DNA of 13,511 nt from a candidate division WOR-3 bacterium (GTDB lineage Bacteria; Hydrothermota; Tepidihabitantia; SM23-42; JAOAFX01): positions 1 to 13,511 of the forward strand of contig JBBILZ010000059.1 in assembly GCA_037444665.1 (NCBI GenBank), given 5' to 3'. This document shows, one piece after another, positions 1,575 through 11,455 of this stretch (the stretch's first letter is position 1; each line of letters begins with the position of its first letter). Both the position numbers and the translations under genes were made by a program. Under the pieces are notes generated by a model that worked only from the letters and a program-made list of their open reading frames with translations, was not told the DNA's origin and searched no databases.

Positions 1575-2308
1575 TGATGATATTAATATTATTTTCCCAG
1601 TTTGTGCTTGCTGAATCGTTATTTGCAAAAAGATATTATGACCTGGCATCCATTGAATATCAAAGGATGTTCTTTTTTGATACTTCTGCTTATAATAATT
1701 TTCAATTACGGCTCAATTACACAATCGCTGTTCTAAATCAAGATTTTTTCAAAGGTTATGAAGAGGTTGAGAAATTATTCCGCGACTTTCCGGAGATTGA
1801 TACCGAATCAAAGGTCATTTTGGGCAGGGAATCCTATAATTTAGGGAATTATGATATTGCGGTCAATATTTTAAAGTCAACACCAGAAAAGAGATTATTG
1901 GGTCTCTCTTATTTGTTCAGCGGGCAATATTCAAATGCCCTTAAAGAATTCCAGATTTTAGATGGGGTGCTTGCTCAGGAAATTGAGGATTTTATTAACC
2001 GGCCTAAAAAATCGGTCACCAGGGCAATGCTCTTTTCATCAATCCTGCCTGGCACTGGTGAAATTTATGCAGGTAATGTAAAACAGGGCATCCAGGATTT
2101 TTTGCTCACCTCTTTAAGTGGTTTTATATTATATAACTCAATTAAAAATAAAAAATATGTGGATGCGGGAATAATATTCAGTTTTCTCTTTAATCGCTTC
2201 TATTTTGGCTCCATCTCAAATGCCGGGCGTATTGCCCAGATGGCCAATGAAAAAACAGAAATGCAATGGTTAGATTATATAAAAAATAAATATCCAATAA
2301 AAAACTAA
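1574..2308 (+). CDS. TPR-repeat protein with C-terminal membrane region, paralogue of the upstream gene
   Basis: TGATG overlap with previous stop; AESLF...YYDLASIEY, LGNYDIAV; KKS...LFSSILPGTGEIYAG motif parallels the upstream protein. Confidence 0.7.
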   Translation: MMILILFSQFVLAESLFAKRYYDLASIEYQRMFFFDTSAYNNFQLRLNYTIAVLNQDFFKGYEEVEKLFRDFPEIDTESKVILGRESYNLGNYDIAVNILKSTPEKRLLGLSYLFSGQYSNALKEFQILDGVLAQEIEDFINRPKKSVTRAMLFSSILPGTGEIYAGNVKQGIQDFLLTSLSGFILYNSIKNKKYVDAGIIFSFLFNRFYFGSISNAGRIAQMANEKTEMQWLDYIKNKYPIKN

Positions 2309-2334
2309 GGATGTGATTTTGTTTTAAACATCCT
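2308..2334 (+). terminator. Possible terminator hairpin after the TPR operon
   Basis: AGGATGT (2308-2314) / ACATCCT (2328-2334) 7-bp inverted repeat directly after the stop; no clear U-tract. Confidence 0.3.
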
Positions 2335-2338
2335 GGGC

Positions 2339-2366
2339 TTGACTTTCAAAGATTTTTTCGTATAAT
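2339..2366 (+). promoter_or_regulatory. Sigma70-type promoter, likely native promoter of the etf operon (now separated from etfB by IS110)
   Basis: TTGACT-N16-TATAAT; the next host gene on + is etfB once the IS is removed. Confidence 0.7.
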
Positions 2367-2513
2367 AAATGCATAAAGAGAATATCGGCGATAACCAATT
2401 TTGATTTTAATCAGAGCCTTGGGAAATTTTTTTATTTTTCCCAGGAATGGCATTCTCTTAACAAGCATTTTCCCAATAGCTTTATGGAAGTGCCTGAAAT
2501 ATACCTGAAGGAG

Positions 2514-3740
2514 TCAACTATGAAGAATTGGCGCCGGAATCAGAGGTGATTCAGGATGACGAATATCAGAGAAGGTAATTTTTCTGTTGAGCAGGGTATA
2601 GAGGACGCGCAGGAGTTTGTTTGCGGTGGCGATAACGGCTTTTTTATGTTTCATTCCCTGTTTCCTTTTCCGTTCGTAGTAGATACGAAACATTTGGGTG
2701 TAAAGGATAACATCCTGGGTTATCTGATAGATTGTCCGGCGCAGATGGCGGTTACCTCGTTTGGAGATTTTATATTGACCTTTGAATTTTCCGGATTCTT
2801 GAATGATTGGATCAATGCCTGTGCCGGCGATGATTTTTTTATGGGATGGGATATTCTCAATAGTTGGCATTTCAGCGATGAAGTTAGCGGCGGAAAGTTC
2901 ACCAATACCCGGCACCGAAGTGAGGATATTCATCTGTTCTTGATGGCTGGTATTTACTTTTTCAATGAATTTTGGCTTGAGCCGAGCCAATTCTTCTTCC
3001 AATTTAAAAAGTCTTTTGATGCAACTTTTCAGGATTTCCTCTCGGTTATCATCGTCAATACTGATGGTATTGTGAGTTATTTCTATAACTTCGGTGGCGG
3101 TGAGTCTTATTTTTCGGCCTTTGCCACGGGAAATTTTTATAATGATTTCGGTGATTCTTTCCTGATTCATTTCTCGGGCGACTCTTGCGGAAGGGATTTC
3201 CAGCAGGAATTCAAGCATGGTTTTGGTGAGGATGTTATATTTTGTTCCCAGTTCGTTGAAGATATTGAAGGTGATTTGTTTGATTCGGTTTTTAAGTTTG
3301 GCGATTTCCTGGGCGATTATTTCATATTCTCGGCCGAGGAGTTTAGTGGAATTGGTGGTGGTATAGTTTTTGATTTTGTCGGGGTTTTTGAGCAAGAAGC
3401 TGGCGATGGTTTTTGCCGAGATTTTGTCGGTAGTGGTTTTTCGCAAGGTGTTTGCTTTTTTGAAGTTTTTGACCAGCAGGGGATTGAGGAGTGTGATATT
3501 ATAGCCTCTATTGGTAAGGAAATTGAGGATATTGATATGGTAGCTGCCGGTGGATTCAATACCGATTGCGAGGTCTTGTGGGTTGCCGATGGTTTGCAGG
3601 TATTCAAGGATTTCGTTAAATCCTTCTTTGGTTTGAGAGAATCTTTTTTGGTTGATAATTTTTTCTTCTGTGTCAAGGACACAGAGGTCCAGGGTATTAA
3701 GGGATGCATCTATGCCGATAAAATATTTATAATCAGGCAT
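2514..3740 (-). CDS. IS110 family transposase/recombinase (DEDD RuvC-like plus Tnp20 domain)
   Basis: FIGID (D11), IESTGSYH (E62), LLNP, KTTTDKISA (D105, S108), SVPGIG, GIDP..QESG (S316), ISKRGNRHLRR, AVIATANKLLRVLY; SD AAGGAGG upstream of the ATG. Confidence 0.95.
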   Translation of the reverse strand: MPDYKYFIGIDASLNTLDLCVLDTEEKIINQKRFSQTKEGFNEILEYLQTIGNPQDLAIGIESTGSYHINILNFLTNRGYNITLLNPLLVKNFKKANTLRKTTTDKISAKTIASFLLKNPDKIKNYTTTNSTKLLGREYEIIAQEIAKLKNRIKQITFNIFNELGTKYNILTKTMLEFLLEIPSARVAREMNQERITEIIIKISRGKGRKIRLTATEVIEITHNTISIDDDNREEILKSCIKRLFKLEEELARLKPKFIEKVNTSHQEQMNILTSVPGIGELSAANFIAEMPTIENIPSHKKIIAGTGIDPIIQESGKFKGQYKISKRGNRHLRRTIYQITQDVILYTQMFRIYYERKRKQGMKHKKAVIATANKLLRVLYTLLNRKITFSDIRHPESPLIPAPILHS

Positions 3741-3766
3741 GGTGGGGCCTCCTTTTTTGCCTTAAA

Positions 3767-3924
3767 TGGATTAAATAATGGAAACAGGATGCTTTCTCTT
3801 CCATCCTCCAAAGTGATCCGGGATCTATGTCCCAACCAACTTATTGGGAATGGAGAAAGCAGGGGACAGACTCCTTCACGGGCTCTTGGCCCAGGTCGTA
3901 TGTCGTCCCCCTGTTTCCAATCCA
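3767..3924 (-). ncRNA. Putative bridge RNA of the IS110 element
   Basis: Non-coding end 5' of the recombinase with nested stems (given on +): GGAAACAGG 3780-3788/CCTGTTTCC 3910-3918; TGCTTTCTC 3790-3798/GAGAAAGCA 3853-3861; GGGGAC 3862-3867/GTCCCC 3905-3910; GGGC 3880-3883/GCCC 3889-3892. Loop sequences match the target and donor. Exact ends unknown. Confidence 0.8.
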
Positions 3925-3962
3925 TCAATTTTTGTGGCGGATTAAGTTCCATTAGTTCCATA

Positions 3963-3998
3963 ATTATATCAATATTATATCCAAATTCAACATAGGAG
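3963..3998 (-). promoter_or_regulatory. IS110 left-end promoter elements
   Basis: Two TATAAT boxes on minus (3974-3979 and 3963-3968); internal TTGAAT(3985-3990)-N16-TATAAT; the circle junction would give TTGACT-N17-TATAAT. Confidence 0.7.
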
Positions 3999-4003
3999 GT
4001 CAT

Positions 4004-4774
4004 TTGAATATCATTGTCTGCATAAAAAGGGTGCCTCAGACTGCTGAGGCAGATGTAAAAGTTGATGTTTCAGGTAAGGATATAGTTAAAGACCGTCTCG
4101 CCTTTGATATGAATGAGTCAGATACATACGCATTAGAACAGGCAATTTTACTAAAAGAAAAACACGGTGGGACAGTTACAGCCATCAGTCTTGGTTATCC
4201 TGATACTGAGGATACTTTGAGAATTGCCCTGGCAAAGGGGGCAGATACGGCAATCAGAATAAAGGCTGAGGAATTTGGCGAGATTGATGGTTATAAGACG
4301 GCAAAGGTTCTCAGTTCAGTAATAAAAACTTTTCCTTTTGACTTAATACTGACAGGCTGTATGTCAACTGATTATGCCTATTCACTTGTTGGCCAGACAC
4401 TCGCTGAACTTGTTGGAGTTCCTCATGCTACACTCGTTACAAAACTTGAGATTAATGACAATCGTGCACAGGTATATCGGGAACTTGAGGGTGGACTATT
4501 AGAACATCTGGATATTACCTTGCCGTTTCTGGCAACAATTCAAACAGGAATTAATACTCCACGCTTTGCTTCACTCATTGCAATCCGCAGGGCTGCGAGC
4601 AAAGAGATAAAGGTGCTTGGCAGTGCTGATATTGGACAGGACATTCTTGCCAATACAATACTTGAAGAATTGTTCGTTCCTCCAGTTGGCAAACGGGCAG
4701 AGATTCTCACTGGATCAGTGGATGAAGTGGCAACAAAATTATCTACGGTTATAAAAGATAAAGGCTTAATATAA
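4004..4774 (+). CDS. etfB: Electron transfer flavoprotein subunit beta
   Basis: MNIIVCIKRVP, NESDTYALEQA, ALAKGAD, DLILTG, RELEGG, INTPRFAS; TTG start after AGGAGG. Confidence 0.95.
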   Translation: MNIIVCIKRVPQTAEADVKVDVSGKDIVKDRLAFDMNESDTYALEQAILLKEKHGGTVTAISLGYPDTEDTLRIALAKGADTAIRIKAEEFGEIDGYKTAKVLSSVIKTFPFDLILTGCMSTDYAYSLVGQTLAELVGVPHATLVTKLEINDNRAQVYRELEGGLLEHLDITLPFLATIQTGINTPRFASLIAIRRAASKEIKVLGSADIGQDILANTILEELFVPPVGKRAEILTGSVDEVATKLSTVIKDKGLI

Positions 4775-4783
4775 GGAGGCTCA

Positions 4784-5764
4784 ATGAATAAAATTCTTAC
4801 TCTAATAGAACACCGTCAGGGCACAATTCGTGATATTACATTTGAATTGTTAACCTTTGCTAACAAAATCGCTACTGAGTTGAATACAAAATCCACTGCA
4901 GTGATTTTAGGACATAATACCGATGGCCTGGTTGCACAATTAAAAAGTTATTCCCATAGCATAATTGTAATGGACAATGCAGTATTCAAAGATTTTAATG
5001 CAGAAGTTTATCAAATGGCTCTGGCAGAGATTATCAGTAAAGAAAGTCCATTTTTGGTATTGGTTGGCCATACCGCATTTGGAATGGATTTGGGTCCTGC
5101 CCTTGCCACTCAATTAAATATACCTTTTGCTACAGATTGTCTTGATATAAAAGTCACAGACAGTAAAATAACAGTTATAAGGTCAATGTATGATGGCAAA
5201 TTGAATGCAAGAATTTTATTAAAGGATAGTCCATCATATTTGGTGACTTATCGTAGTGGAAACACACCGGTGGAAGCGGGCAATCTTGATGCCGAAATCA
5301 TAAAAATTGAAGCACCAATCAATGTTCAGCCAGAATACAGAAGATTTGTTGAATACATTGAGGCTGCGGTTGGTGCGATTGATATTACCAAAGCAGACAT
5401 TATTGTTTCTGTAGGCAGAGGTATTAAAGATAAAGCGAACCTACCACTGATAGAAGATTTTGCAAAGGCAATTGGTGGTGTCATTGGTTGCACCAGGCCG
5501 GTCGTTGATGCAGGCTGGTTGCCCAAAGAACACCAGGTGGGTTCATCAGGCAAGACTGTTAAACCGAAACTGTATATTGCCCTCGGTATCTCTGGCGCAT
5601 TTCAGCACATAAGCGGAATGAAGAATTCAGATACTATTATTGCAATTAACAAAGACCCTAATGCTCCAATCTTCAATGAAGCAGACTACGGAATTGTAGA
5701 AGACCTGTTTAAAGTGGTACCGGTTTTGAAGAATAAGATACTTGAGATAAAACAGGCGAAATGA
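4784..5764 (+). CDS. etfA: Electron transfer flavoprotein subunit alpha
   Basis: ADIIVSVGRG, GCTRPVVDAGWLP...QVGSSGKTVKPKLYIALGISGAFQH...IAINKDPNAPIF; SD AAGGAGG. Confidence 0.96.
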   Translation: MNKILTLIEHRQGTIRDITFELLTFANKIATELNTKSTAVILGHNTDGLVAQLKSYSHSIIVMDNAVFKDFNAEVYQMALAEIISKESPFLVLVGHTAFGMDLGPALATQLNIPFATDCLDIKVTDSKITVIRSMYDGKLNARILLKDSPSYLVTYRSGNTPVEAGNLDAEIIKIEAPINVQPEYRRFVEYIEAAVGAIDITKADIIVSVGRGIKDKANLPLIEDFAKAIGGVIGCTRPVVDAGWLPKEHQVGSSGKTVKPKLYIALGISGAFQHISGMKNSDTIIAINKDPNAPIFNEADYGIVEDLFKVVPVLKNKILEIKQAK

Positions 5765-5826
5765 TTGGTGTAAGTTATAAGGCATAGATGCTGGTTTGGT
5801 AAAAGGTTTTTCGGGGATAAATTACT

Positions 5827-6999
5827 ATGAATAATTTACTTAAACTCAATCCTGAAATTCGTGCACTCCTTATAGAACAGGGTGCAGATGATGCAATAAA
5901 GTGTTATGAATGCGGTAGGTGTATGGGTGCCTGCCCCTGGAATCTATTAGAGGATGTCAATTATACTACATATCAATTCCCGGAATTGATAAGGCTTGGT
6001 CAGTTATTAGCAAGCGAAGATAAGACCTGTATTGCCCGTGAATGTTCTGAGGTATTCCGCTGTGTTGGTTGTGATAGTTGTCTTTATGAGTGTCCAAGAA
6101 AAGTGAATATCTCAAATATTCTCAGGGCAGCGCGGAGAATAATGATTGATTTTGGCTCATATCCTCAAGAATTGAAGAGCTTTATTCTGAGATTGGGCAG
6201 TAATAATAATCCACTCGGTGAACCACAGGAAAAAAGGGGTGATTGGGCAAAGGAATTGCATCTCAAAAAGTATGACCTAACTACCGAATATCTTTTATTT
6301 ACCTGCTGTATCACTGCCTATGATAATCGGGCAAAGAATATTGCAAAATCGGTTGCTTATTTGCTGCAAAAATCTGGTGTTGATTTTGGCATAGTGAGCG
6401 AAAATGAATCCTGTTGTGGTGAGGCAGTGAGGCGTGCAGGTGCAGAAAAAGTCTTTCAGCAGTTATTCAATGCAAATCTCAATCTTCTAAAAAGTTCCAG
6501 CCCAAAGAATGTTCTTACGATTTCACCACACTGTTATACAATCTTCAATAATGAATACCGTAAAGAATATGAATTTCAGACCCTTCACTATACCCAGATT
6601 CTCAGTCAACTACTCAAAGATGGCAGATTGAAGCCGGTCAAAGATTTCAATAAAAAGGTTGTTTATCACGACCCCTGCACCCTGGGCAGACAGAGTGGCA
6701 TATATGAAGAGCCAAGGGAAATACTTAAAAGCATTCCAGGATTAGAACTTGTAGAAGTTCCATTCTTTAATAGAAAGAATAGTGTGTGTTGTGGTGCTGG
6801 CTCAATGGGTCTGTGGCGTGATTGGAATGAAGGTCGTCTCTCTAATTATCGTTTGCATCAATTATTAAAGACCGGTGCTGAGGTGATTGCAGTTGCCTGT
6901 CCATATTGTTTACAGATGTTTGAAGAGACATTAAAATCTATGAATATAAGCATTCCGGTAATGGATGTGGCAGAGATACTGTGTGAGTCTATTTCATAG
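5827..6999 (+). CDS. (Fe-S)-binding oxidoreductase, HdrD/GlpC-like (two 4Fe-4S motifs plus two CCG domains)
   Basis: CYECGRCMGACP, CVGCDSCLYECP, ESCCGE, SPHC, YHDPCTLGR, CCGAG, ACPYC. Confidence 0.9.
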   Translation: MNNLLKLNPEIRALLIEQGADDAIKCYECGRCMGACPWNLLEDVNYTTYQFPELIRLGQLLASEDKTCIARECSEVFRCVGCDSCLYECPRKVNISNILRAARRIMIDFGSYPQELKSFILRLGSNNNPLGEPQEKRGDWAKELHLKKYDLTTEYLLFTCCITAYDNRAKNIAKSVAYLLQKSGVDFGIVSENESCCGEAVRRAGAEKVFQQLFNANLNLLKSSSPKNVLTISPHCYTIFNNEYRKEYEFQTLHYTQILSQLLKDGRLKPVKDFNKKVVYHDPCTLGRQSGIYEEPREILKSIPGLELVEVPFFNRKNSVCCGAGSMGLWRDWNEGRLSNYRLHQLLKTGAEVIAVACPYCLQMFEETLKSMNISIPVMDVAEILCESIS

Positions 7000-10017: not shown

Positions 10018-11217
10018 TTATGGTGGCTGGTAATGTCTAAGGCTATTCAATTCTTTTGAGAAATAAACAATCTCAACCAATTTCATTGGTTTATGGCATA
10101 CTGGACAGGCCAATGGGTCAATGTCGGTGAGTGTGATATGTCTTGAGCGCCAATTTTCCTGGTTGATTAACTGTTGTTCCCGGTTAAGAGCGGCAAAGAC
10201 CAAGGGCAACAATTCTTTTTTTGCCCGATTAGCCAGGGCACCATAATAGCGGATCTGACGGAAATGGGGTGGCAGAATATGTTGAATCAAAAGGCTGATG
10301 AAATCTTCAACCCGAACGATTTCTCTGATTTCTGGTTCATCATGGGGTTTGACGGAGAAACTTACACACCATTGATTAGGTCCAAACTCTTCACGCTGTC
10401 GGTAATCAAGGATTCTACTTTCTGCGATTGGTGGTCTTTTTGCGTAGCGGGCAGTATAGCTGAGGGAAAATTTTTCTGTGGGTAGTTCTTTTGAGTCATG
10501 GACATACCAATTGATTTCCAAAAGGGGATTAAAGAAGCTATCAAGGCCTTGTGGATCTCTGAAGACCTCGAGTTCTCCACAACTGGAGTGGTGTTGGAGG
10601 TATTGGGTGATTTTTTCTTTAAGGAATGTGATAGTTAAGGCGCGGTATCTTTTATGGAGCATGACAAAGGGTATGTAGCTACATCTTTTCCAGCGGTTAG
10701 TTGGTTGGTTATTTTCTATGATTAGGCCGCCAGCGGTTATTAAGAGATGGATATGACAATTAAAGTTGACTCTTCGGCCAAAGGTATGGACTGCTGCGAT
10801 AATCAAGGGTAGGAGGTGTTTTTCTTTATAAAAGGAGAGGACGGTTTGGCTTGCAGCTTTGAATAGGGAATTGATTAAGAAGGGATATTGTTGGAATAAT
10901 CCGCGTAAGGTATCTGGGATGGTGAAGCAGATGTGATGGAAGGGTGTTTTGGGGAAGATGGCTTGGACCTTGGCGATGAGTTTATCAGTCAGTTTTTTGC
11001 CGCAGGAGTTACAGAAATTGGATTTACAGGTATTAGGGATGAAACGGCATTGCCAGGGGTGGTCTGGGCACTGATAGACATGGTAGCCCAATTTTTCTGG
11101 GTCTCGGCAGGAAAGCATTTTGTTGACGGTGTCGATGACATATTGGGGGAGGTTTTGGTGTTTAGCGAGGTAATCGGGCCAATGGCGTTTAAAGATTTGT
11201 TTAATTGAATAAGGCAT
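10018..11217 (-). CDS. IS91 family transposase
   Basis: Zn-binding CRDP..LGY..YQC...CKSNFCNSCG, HHICFTIP, HUH region VHTFGRRVNFNCHIHLL, Y2 motif YTARYAKRPP, QHILPPHFRQIRYYG, C-terminal CPVC. Start placed at MPYSIKQIF. Confidence 0.93.
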   Translation of the reverse strand: MPYSIKQIFKRHWPDYLAKHQNLPQYVIDTVNKMLSCRDPEKLGYHVYQCPDHPWQCRFIPNTCKSNFCNSCGKKLTDKLIAKVQAIFPKTPFHHICFTIPDTLRGLFQQYPFLINSLFKAASQTVLSFYKEKHLLPLIIAAVHTFGRRVNFNCHIHLLITAGGLIIENNQPTNRWKRCSYIPFVMLHKRYRALTITFLKEKITQYLQHHSSCGELEVFRDPQGLDSFFNPLLEINWYVHDSKELPTEKFSLSYTARYAKRPPIAESRILDYRQREEFGPNQWCVSFSVKPHDEPEIREIVRVEDFISLLIQHILPPHFRQIRYYGALANRAKKELLPLVFAALNREQQLINQENWRSRHITLTDIDPLACPVCHKPMKLVEIVYFSKELNSLRHYQPP

Positions 11218-11227
11218 AAGGTATATT

Positions 11228-11455
11228 ATGGCGATAATTAACTTTAAATGCAATAGGTGTGATGAGGTATTTGATTGTGATGTGGGTGAGATAAATTTTG
11301 AGTTGGTTAATTGGCGACCACAGTTTGAGCGAGAAATTGTGTGTCCGAACTGTGGTAAGTTAACTTTGGACGATGTTGAATTGACTGAGTTTGGTCAGTC
11401 ACAACTAACTGAATTATGGTGGATAGATGCTGAAAGAAAACAGCGTAAAAAATAA
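11228..11455 (+). CDS. Small Zn-ribbon protein (IS91 passenger)
   Basis: 75 aa; CNRC...CPNCG; basic C-terminus; divergent from tnp with only 10 nt between start codons. Confidence 0.65.
   Translation: MAIINFKCNRCDEVFDCDVGEINFELVNWRPQFEREIVCPNCGKLTLDDVELTEFGQSQLTELWWIDAERKQRKK

Follow-up and report, generated by a model that had tools for sequence, protein, structure and literature searches.

We conclude that the RNA segment encoded at 3861-3790, on the minus strand of the window (the whole 13,511-nt stretch of DNA that was analysed), is very probably the donor-binding loop of an IS110 bridge RNA. The loop appears to form part of a conserved, structured RNA encoded at 3918-3780, in the left end of an insertion sequence and upstream of the recombinase start codon at 3740. 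It is complementary in sequence to the two ends of the element, the RNA covaries with the ends and with the flanking DNA in relatives, and its helices are preserved. As judged from the DNA alone, the testable defining sequence features of the IS110-group bridge system are present, the junction promoter as a candidate only. A preliminary description of this DNA had proposed a donor-binding loop here, with left and right guides; that interpretation is partly supported, and in the main it stands. The features are collected in Table 1.

Table 1. Features of the element, its predicted RNA and its gene, in window coordinates.
Feature	Position	Strand	Remarks
IS110-group insertion sequence	2514..3996	minus	Left end 3996, right end 2514; 1483 bp without flanking CT; homology to relatives and own-genome contigs stops there
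CT core, left copy	3997..3998	minus	In seven close relatives, flank variable up to the preceding C
CT core, right copy	2512..2513	minus	Sequence, own-genome contigs, close relatives
Right-end terminus ATAGTTGA, left donor half	2514..2521	minus	TTGA plus core gives TTGACT, putative -35 box of the junction promoter
Left-end terminus CCTATGT, right donor half	3990..3996	minus	Sequence and close relatives
TATAAT, putative -10 box of the junction promoter	3974..3979	minus	17 nt after core
Internal left-end promoter-like site (TTGAAT, 16 nt, TATAAT, TG before -10)	3963..3990	minus	Consensus match only
P1, 5' arm GGAAACAG	3911..3918	minus	Pairs with 3787-3780; poorly aligned across clades, 48% paired
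Target-binding loop	3862..3910	minus	Stem 3910-3905 with 3867-3862; hairpin 3892-3880; handshake UC 3870-3869
Left target guide AUACGACCU	3893..3901	minus	Columns against left-flank -1 to -4: 74-92% paired
Right target guide UGAAGGAG	3871..3878	minus	Columns against right-flank +2 to +6: mutual information 0.49-1.41, 77-96% paired
Donor-loop outer stem, 5' arm UGCUUUCUC	3853..3861	minus	84.9% of cells paired over 9 pairs, 8 of them with two-sided changes
Donor-loop outer stem, 3' arm GAGAAAGCA	3790..3798	minus	Partner of 3861-3853
Second stem segment, 5' arm UUCC	3847..3850	minus	RNAalifold columns 88-91 with 150-153
Second stem segment, 3' arm GGAA	3799..3802	minus	Partner of UUCC 3850-3847
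Left donor guide AGUUGGUU	3834..3841	minus	3841-3835 supported; last U, 3834, doubtful
Inner hairpin GGGA-CAUAGA-UCCC	3820..3833	minus	99.3% paired, all four pairs with two-sided changes (alignment A2)
Distal right donor guide AUCA	3814..3817	minus	A3817, U3816, A3814 pair with left-end T, A, T (6th, 5th, 4th after first core base); C3815 bulged
Proximal right donor guide GGAG	3806..3809	minus	Pairs with top strand CT+CC; 129/134 per G column
Donor-loop handshake guide GA	3804..3805	minus	G3805 faces last base of left target half
Ribosome-binding site GGAGG	3752-3748	minus	Upstream of recombinase start
Recombinase gene, 408 aa plus stop	2514..3740	minus	Stop TGA 2516-2514 within right end

The preliminary description had assumed that the circularized element reads TAGTTGA-CT-CCTATGT across its junction, and this assumption is now backed by contigs of the same genome, by relatives and by contig breaks. 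In the 120-contig genome, contig C84 matches the window from 2513 downwards, with other DNA before that point, and thus marks the right edge of the element; contig C26 matches 4109-3994 and then runs into unrelated sequence, marking the left edge. Seven close relatives (73-86% protein identity) have a right end ...CATAGTTGA followed by CT and CCTT..., and on their left side a flank that varies up to a final C is followed by CT and CCTATGTTGAAT...; their flanks are unrelated. Further, contigs of run X1 (97% of sampled words) break at 2513 and at 3994-4001. Because three further bases, CCT, are common to the left end and the right flank, the border is ambiguous from sequence alone. It is settled by the target guides, of which the left ends in CCU just before the hairpin and the right ends in AG. 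Of the 124 relatives with both ends called, 109 are flanked by CT at either end and 7 by CA. Contigs of four runs, which drop rare forms, held neither a circle junction nor an excision joint; the sole joint in them is a 77-nt skip inside the gene, on one contig.

Departures from the CT core were also noted. In one clade (L075, L085, L086, L111, L113, L126 and L128), CA replaces CT on both sides; the right guides track this change (GGUG, with the target guide ending in UG), and the last U of the left guides is unchanged. Between near-identical copies (L032, L046 and L030 versus L031, L064 and L048), the dinucleotide at the right junction is AT or AG, not CT. At another locus (L076), the left junction is AT and the left target guide ends in AU.

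Both IS110 domains are found in the predicted recombinase, which places it among the IS110-group enzymes: PF01548 at residues 8-156 (E 7e-26; 91.3 bits, cut-off 29) and PF02371 at residues 271-356 (E 2.2e-21; 76.5 bits, cut-off 21.3). Against solved structures, phmmer returned the IS621 transposase (8wt6_A, E 1.8e-23), a distant relative aligned over two stretches only, and the ISCro4 transposase (9t56_A, PDB 9t56, E 3e-23), a second solved IS110-family match, compared at the level of the protein. The DEDD residues D11, E62 and D105 align with D11, E60 and D102 of IS621. At the fourth position, the window's clade has a serine (S108, codon 3417-3419, minus strand), whereas IS621 has D105 opposite it in the phmmer alignment; the account of Hiraizumi et al. 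(2024, PMC11208158) names D105 as a catalytic residue. The window's recombinase and seven close relatives (P0001, P0002, L013, L014, L015, L093 and L006) share the string TDKISA, and D occupies the position of S108 in 17 of 20 aligned family members. This serine clade still looks mobile, in that the flanks differ among its members and the target guides match those flanks.

The comparative evidence for the RNA derives from relatives of this recombinase. A protein search gave 444 proteins at E <= 1e-40. With a single protein as query, no relative was found in genome contigs; an alignment of 20 proteins used as query yielded 80 metagenome loci and 80 genome loci. A DNA profile located the RNA region in 152 of 166 oriented related loci, and the 136 distinct RNA-region sequences made up the alignment used for pair counts (A2). 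Searching Rfam gave no match at the gathering score in the window, and positions 2300-4100 gave only chance-level matches (E >= 2).

The stem formed by 3790-3798 and 3853-3861, on which the preliminary description built its loop, is a perfect 9-bp helix in the window and covaries in relatives. RNAalifold on A2 added a second stem segment, whose four pairs have changed on both sides in 50, 14, 4 and 23 sequences. The closing pair of the inner hairpin is C-G in 63 sequences, U-A in 59 and A-U in 8, and the target-loop hairpin has 97.1% of the cells of its four pairs paired, with all four changed on both sides (A2). None of 500 shuffles attained the observed pairing measures, and sliding the partners by one to three columns lowered pairing from 79.0% to 43.5-60.9%. 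In the consensus, AGUUG and GGAG stay single-stranded. The consensus does pair columns 102-103, the sixth and seventh left-guide bases, with two distal right-guide bases, and such a contact could form in the free RNA.

Folded singly, the window sequence has a minimum-energy structure (-75.7 kcal/mol, z -3.4) in which most of the loop is paired, both guides included; apart from the second stem segment, the pairs of this structure are not kept in relatives. A related concern, raised at the outset, was that the guides might be buried in a stable hairpin, UCCCAA/UUGGGA. That hairpin is paired in 68.9% of cases; one of its pairs fails to form in 126 of 135 sequences and a second in 89 of 136, and we rejected it as not conserved across relatives. 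The inner hairpin, which frees the guides, is the one that is almost always paired.

The strings on which the guides were proposed lie exactly where the preliminary description put them: AGUUGGUU at 3841-3834, GGAG at 3809-3806 and ACAUAG at 3830-3825. It had also suggested looking for covariation with the element ends, and both guides do covary with the ends in relatives. Consensus patterns allowing at most one mismatch were used to locate these ends, so that strongly deviant ends are excluded from the counts that follow.

For the left donor guide, a family 9-mer (at most one mismatch) located the right end in 134 of 152 loci, which gave 126 distinct records of RNA plus right end. Donor positions are numbered from the first core base as 0, bases are written DNA/RNA, and one record is gapped at each position from -5 to +1. 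At -6, DNA A faces RNA A in 64 records, G in 59 and U in 3. Position -5 is G/G in 125; -4 is T/U in 121, A/A in 3 and G/G in 1; -3 is T/U in 124 and A/U in 1; and -2 is G/G in 124 and A/A in 1. At -1, DNA A is found with RNA A in 96 and with G in 28, alongside a single C/G. The first core base is C/U in 122 and A/U in 3, and +1 is T/U in 110, A/U in 8 and otherwise mismatched in 7. Every departure at -4 and -2 is thus mirrored in the RNA.

The compensated right ends are those of L077, L121 and L147 (AGATGA with AGAUGA or GGAUGA), L089 (AGGTGA with AGGUGA) and the pair L084/L099 (AGTTAA with GGUUAA). The first four of these loci group together at 70-82% nucleotide identity, and L084 has 74% nucleotide identity to L100, which has the usual right end; judged from such identities, there were at least three double changes. 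A protein tree (quick method, 94 rows) is silent on the number of right-end changes, because the start-codon finder missed L077, L084, L089, L099, L121, L141 and L147 and these seven rows are absent from it. Uncompensated right ends are found in L141 (AGTAGA with AGUUGA) and in a decayed copy, L008. The donor is nearly frozen (AGTTGACT in 124 of 143 loci), and the covariation of the left guide therefore rests on few events. Since the donor barely varies, a mutual-information scan against it was dominated by clade-level signal, and contingency tables were used instead.

These tables also define the extent of the guide. The base before it, facing donor -7 (T), is A, C, U or G and is unpaired. 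At its other end, U3834 does not track the core in the CA-core clade (eight A/U records) and varies in six further records. Of the left guide as originally proposed, 3841-3835 is thus upheld by the covariation in the 126 records, and the last U is doubtful. The two mismatches in the window prove to be features of the family: a purine (A or G) opposite T, and a U that never varies and faces the G paired to the first core base. When the 54-nt loop was shuffled 20000 times, eight bases able to pair, wobble allowed, with the bottom strand of AGTTGACT arose in 160 shuffles. This match exceeds chance, and it is the only one of the three matches that stands on its own. An alternative register, in which RNA AUA lies against right-end ATA with one purine bulged, was rejected, as the column that it requires varies (A 101, C 12, U 9, G 4); it is also disfavoured by the purine column, which fits T.

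For the right donor guide, a 7-mer pattern (at most one mismatch) located left ends in 138 of 152 loci, yielding 134 distinct records; a few ends mislocated by the pattern were corrected by eye. GGAG had been put forward as this guide, and its core-proximal role is borne out. Its columns face C, T, C and C, the A column facing T in 122 of the 134 records, and it changes together with the DNA in three lineages (GGUG, GAAG and AGAG). In seven records of the CA-core clade, core T has become A and RNA A has become U (GGUG with CACC). Compensated left ends are also seen in L043 and L051 (CTTC with GAAG) and in L167 (CTCT with AGAG); L053 has CTCT with GGAG, a wobble, and L038 has an uncompensated change, CTAC facing GGAG.

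The preliminary description missed the distal part of the right guide (A3817, U3816 and A3814) and the handshake base, G3805. A3814 forms a Watson-Crick pair with T in 132 of 134 records, and U3816 with A in 130 of 134. The A3817 column has 129 Watson-Crick pairs (RNA A with DNA T in 11 records, RNA G with DNA C in 118) plus four G.T; the alternation takes in L019, which has C with G inside the window's wider clade, and L148 has T with G. Two stretches of the guide are unpaired, namely C3815, which is skipped, and CUUU (3813-3810), which separates the distal and proximal parts. In all, the guide spans seven donor bases from the first core base.

The target-binding loop is supported independently by the flanks, its match to them being visible by eye even in the seven close relatives. 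The handshake base of the donor loop tracks the target: the G3805 column and target -1 show C/G in 108, A/U in 5, T/A in 3 and T/G in 5 of 134 records (mutual information 0.40, z 27), that is, 116 Watson-Crick pairs and 5 wobbles. The right end terminates in an invariant A, and the U that follows the right target guide lies opposite it; this is consistent with a handshake at a position that shows no variation.

When the right and left ends are joined, TTGACT, 17 nt and TATAAT can be read across the junction. In 78 of 106 distinct left ends, a TATAA begins 17-19 nt past the core; TG stands one base before it in 53. Under a strict -10 rule, 18 of 106 left ends scored, versus 25 and 19 at control spacings, so that this rule revealed no enrichment for the junction promoter. 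The recombinase stop codon falls within the last seven right-end bases in 96 of 143 loci (TAG in 77, TGA in 19); in 40, no long frame was found. We infer from these sequences that the donor may be frozen because the right end doubles as a -35 box and as the recombinase stop codon. According to the account of Durrant et al. (2024, PMC11208160), the IS621 circle rebuilds a promoter across its core.

By analogy with IS621, the RNA would be made, the recombinase would be bound by it, and recombination would follow. The element would leave the chromosome as a circle, in which the right end, ...ATAGTTGA, meets the left end, CCTATGT..., across one CT. This junction of right and left ends would be the donor site, and the promoter formed there (TTGACT, 17 nt, TATAAT) would drive both the RNA and the recombinase gene. 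In the RNA, a stem of two parts (3861-3853/3798-3790 and 3850-3847/3802-3799) would present the internal loop, with the hairpin at 3833-3820 dividing the two guide sides. On the 5' side of the loop, AGUUGGU(U) (3841-3834), having the same sense as the right end, would pair with the bottom strand, with two rG.dT wobbles and one rU.dG wobble. On the right side, GGAG (3809-3806) would pair with CT+CC, and A3814, U3816 and A3817 with the T, A and T that follow, leaving out C3815 and CUUU (3813-3810). The target loop (3910-3862) would likewise hold the target, ATGAC-CT-CCTTCA, and after the swap of top strands G3805 would pair with the last base of the left target half in the handshake.

These data must be weighed against explanations in which the loop guides nothing. 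One is that it has a structural or protein-binding role in the RNA, and that AGUUGRUU and GGAG resemble the element ends by coincidence or through shared descent. The RNA motifs and the ends are both almost invariant, and conservation alone cannot separate this explanation from a guide role; moreover, U3835 and the AU at 3844-3843 are invariant or nearly so and require no pairing to DNA. Such a role does not, however, account for the rare end changes that are mirrored in the RNA (in four of four records at -4, of two kinds, and in the one record at -2), for the seven records in which the core T to A change is matched, or for the CTTC/GAAG and CTCT/AGAG combinations. The variation at two guide positions that face T is confined to purines, which fits wobble pairing. 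We therefore consider a purely structural role to be quite unlikely. We see even less to recommend the notion that the region acts as a leader at the 5' end of the recombinase mRNA, controlling translation or transcription with no guide role, which strikes us as highly improbable. The region does lie between the promoter-like site and GGAGG at 3752-3748, and the single-sequence fold is stable (z -3.4). Yet a leader does not predict a target loop that tracks the flanking DNA, which is different in each copy, and the donor loop repeats the layout of the target loop.

A further proposal concerns the guides within a donor-binding loop. The preliminary description pointed out that ACAUAG (3830-3825) is complementary to CTATGT of the left end, and the hexamer could thus be an additional right donor guide. 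The complement is perfect over 6 nt, and the exact hexamer arose in only 290 of 20000 loop shuffles; complements of at least 6 nt to either strand of the 30-nt junction, however, arose in 1238 of 3000. GGAG, which arose in 4976 of 20000, is likewise not significant alone. With both matches within chance, comparative evidence was needed for each, and for ACAUAG it is adverse. The hexamer lies in the apical loop of the covariation-backed inner hairpin, and this loop has no conserved sequence across the family. Among six close relatives it reads ACAUAG in two and ACA-AG, ACUUAG, ACAUCG and ACGUAG in one each; it is thus altered in four of the six, whereas the left end, CCTATG, is constant. Further, the same left-end bases are already covered by the distal guide (3817-3814). 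This claim was rejected, and we regard a guide role for ACAUAG as scarcely credible.

A donor-binding loop built on the left guide and the split right guide agrees closely with IS621, as far as the accounts of Durrant et al. (PMC11208160) and Hiraizumi et al. (PMC11208158) and PDB entry 8wt6 describe that system. Both have a CT core, and in both the left end encodes an RNA ahead of the gene for a two-domain IS110 recombinase. The RNA has two internal loops, target first and donor second, and its 3' guide engages the top strand, starting at the core and extending to the right. Seven donor bases are covered by a right donor guide in two parts, each right guide is succeeded by a handshake base, and a short ATA...TAT inverted repeat surrounds the donor. 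The promoter that IS621 rebuilds across its circle junction has a candidate counterpart here, read from the sequence of the ends. In the structural account (PMC11208158), the IS621 donor loop consists of a stem, a left guide of 8 nt, a stem-loop and a right guide. The last is divided in two, with two U flipped out and one pair non-canonical, and each right guide is followed by two handshake bases. In the account of Durrant et al. (PMC11208160), nine RNA bases of the right donor guide pair discontiguously with seven donor bases.

The differences from IS621, as it is described in these sources, are matters of degree. The window's left donor guide makes seven pairs, perhaps eight, where that of IS621 has 8 nt. 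Facing the first core base is always U in the window's family, as against C130, paired to G, in IS621. The right guide leaves out five RNA bases (C3815 and CUUU), compared with the two flipped-out bases and one non-canonical pair of IS621. Serine at the fourth catalytic position in the window's clade is a further such difference. The IS1111 group has the same recombinase family and RNA-guided logic (as outlined by Durrant 2024, PMC11208160); its RNA lies in a long right end, and it has long subterminal inverted repeats. Unlike that group, the window's element has a long left end (256 nt from 3996 to the start codon) and a right end that stops at the stop codon.

The element is therefore best regarded as an ordinary new example of a known bridge RNA system, to be annotated as an insertion sequence with a guide RNA. 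The case illustrates that both halves of a bridge RNA donor loop could be found by a reader from sequence alone, and it supplies exact guide coordinates for a lineage far from IS621. For the engineering of bridge recombinases, it offers a natural split right donor guide whose unpaired insert is longer, a naturally conserved wobble at the core, and a clade that has serine at a catalytic aspartate position and is still seemingly mobile.

These features raise a broader possibility, which we put forward tentatively and which is unlikely to hold in all its parts. The element may represent a widespread IS110 lineage (Thermotogota, Nitrospirota, Cloacimonadota, Spirochaetota and others, by record titles) with a variant donor loop. 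Its left guide would have U, never C, opposite the first core base, making an rU.dG wobble obligatory, and would tolerate G.T at two further positions. The donor would be frozen as -35 box and stop codon, and serine would replace the fourth catalytic aspartate in the window's clade. If so, a weak, wobble-rich grip on the donor could be tuned, for example by easing release or strand exchange; it might also prevent the DNA that encodes the RNA from serving as a donor.

Judged from the titles of the records, this lineage has crossed phyla. Loci L093-L172 share the RNA and the element ends, and their titles name Thermotoga, Nitrospirota, Thermodesulfovibrionales, Cloacimonadota, Spirochaetota, Deferribacter, Caldisericales and others. 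Among the titles are those of thermophile groups, for instance Thermotoga and Fervidobacterium, and the runs with related DNA are labelled as subsurface and hot springs metagenomes.

Around the element, the window brings together a left flank from one site and a right flank from another (2297-2513 and 3994-4109, corresponding to C84:7636-7852 and C26:32520-32635). In C26, the window's left flank is joined to different DNA. In C84, the window's right flank is preceded by DNA homologous to the left flank of a relative (L013), and C84 is thus an empty site. In run X1, depth is 55-60 over the element and 17-20 over its flanks, and further flanks are present on both ends. The mismatch of the flanks reflects either a rearrangement mediated by the element or an assembler walk through a repeat of about three copies.

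A second copy is found on another contig of the genome (C6:63736-64067, minus strand), with 95% identity over the last 331 nt of the gene. It ends ...CTTCATAATAC before CT CCTT, without AGTTGA, its frame continues into the flank, and its RNA-bearing 5' half is absent from the assembly. Elsewhere in the window, an unrelated transposase reading frame of the IS91 family (411 aa, 10018-11253, minus strand) matches PF04986 (E 6.3e-30) and PF14319 (E 1.3e-17). Adjoining the element, 4004-6999 carries genes for the beta and alpha subunits of electron-transfer flavoprotein and for a CCG-domain iron-sulfur protein; the left end of the element is 5 nt from the TTG start of the first of these neighbours, as called by the ORF finder.
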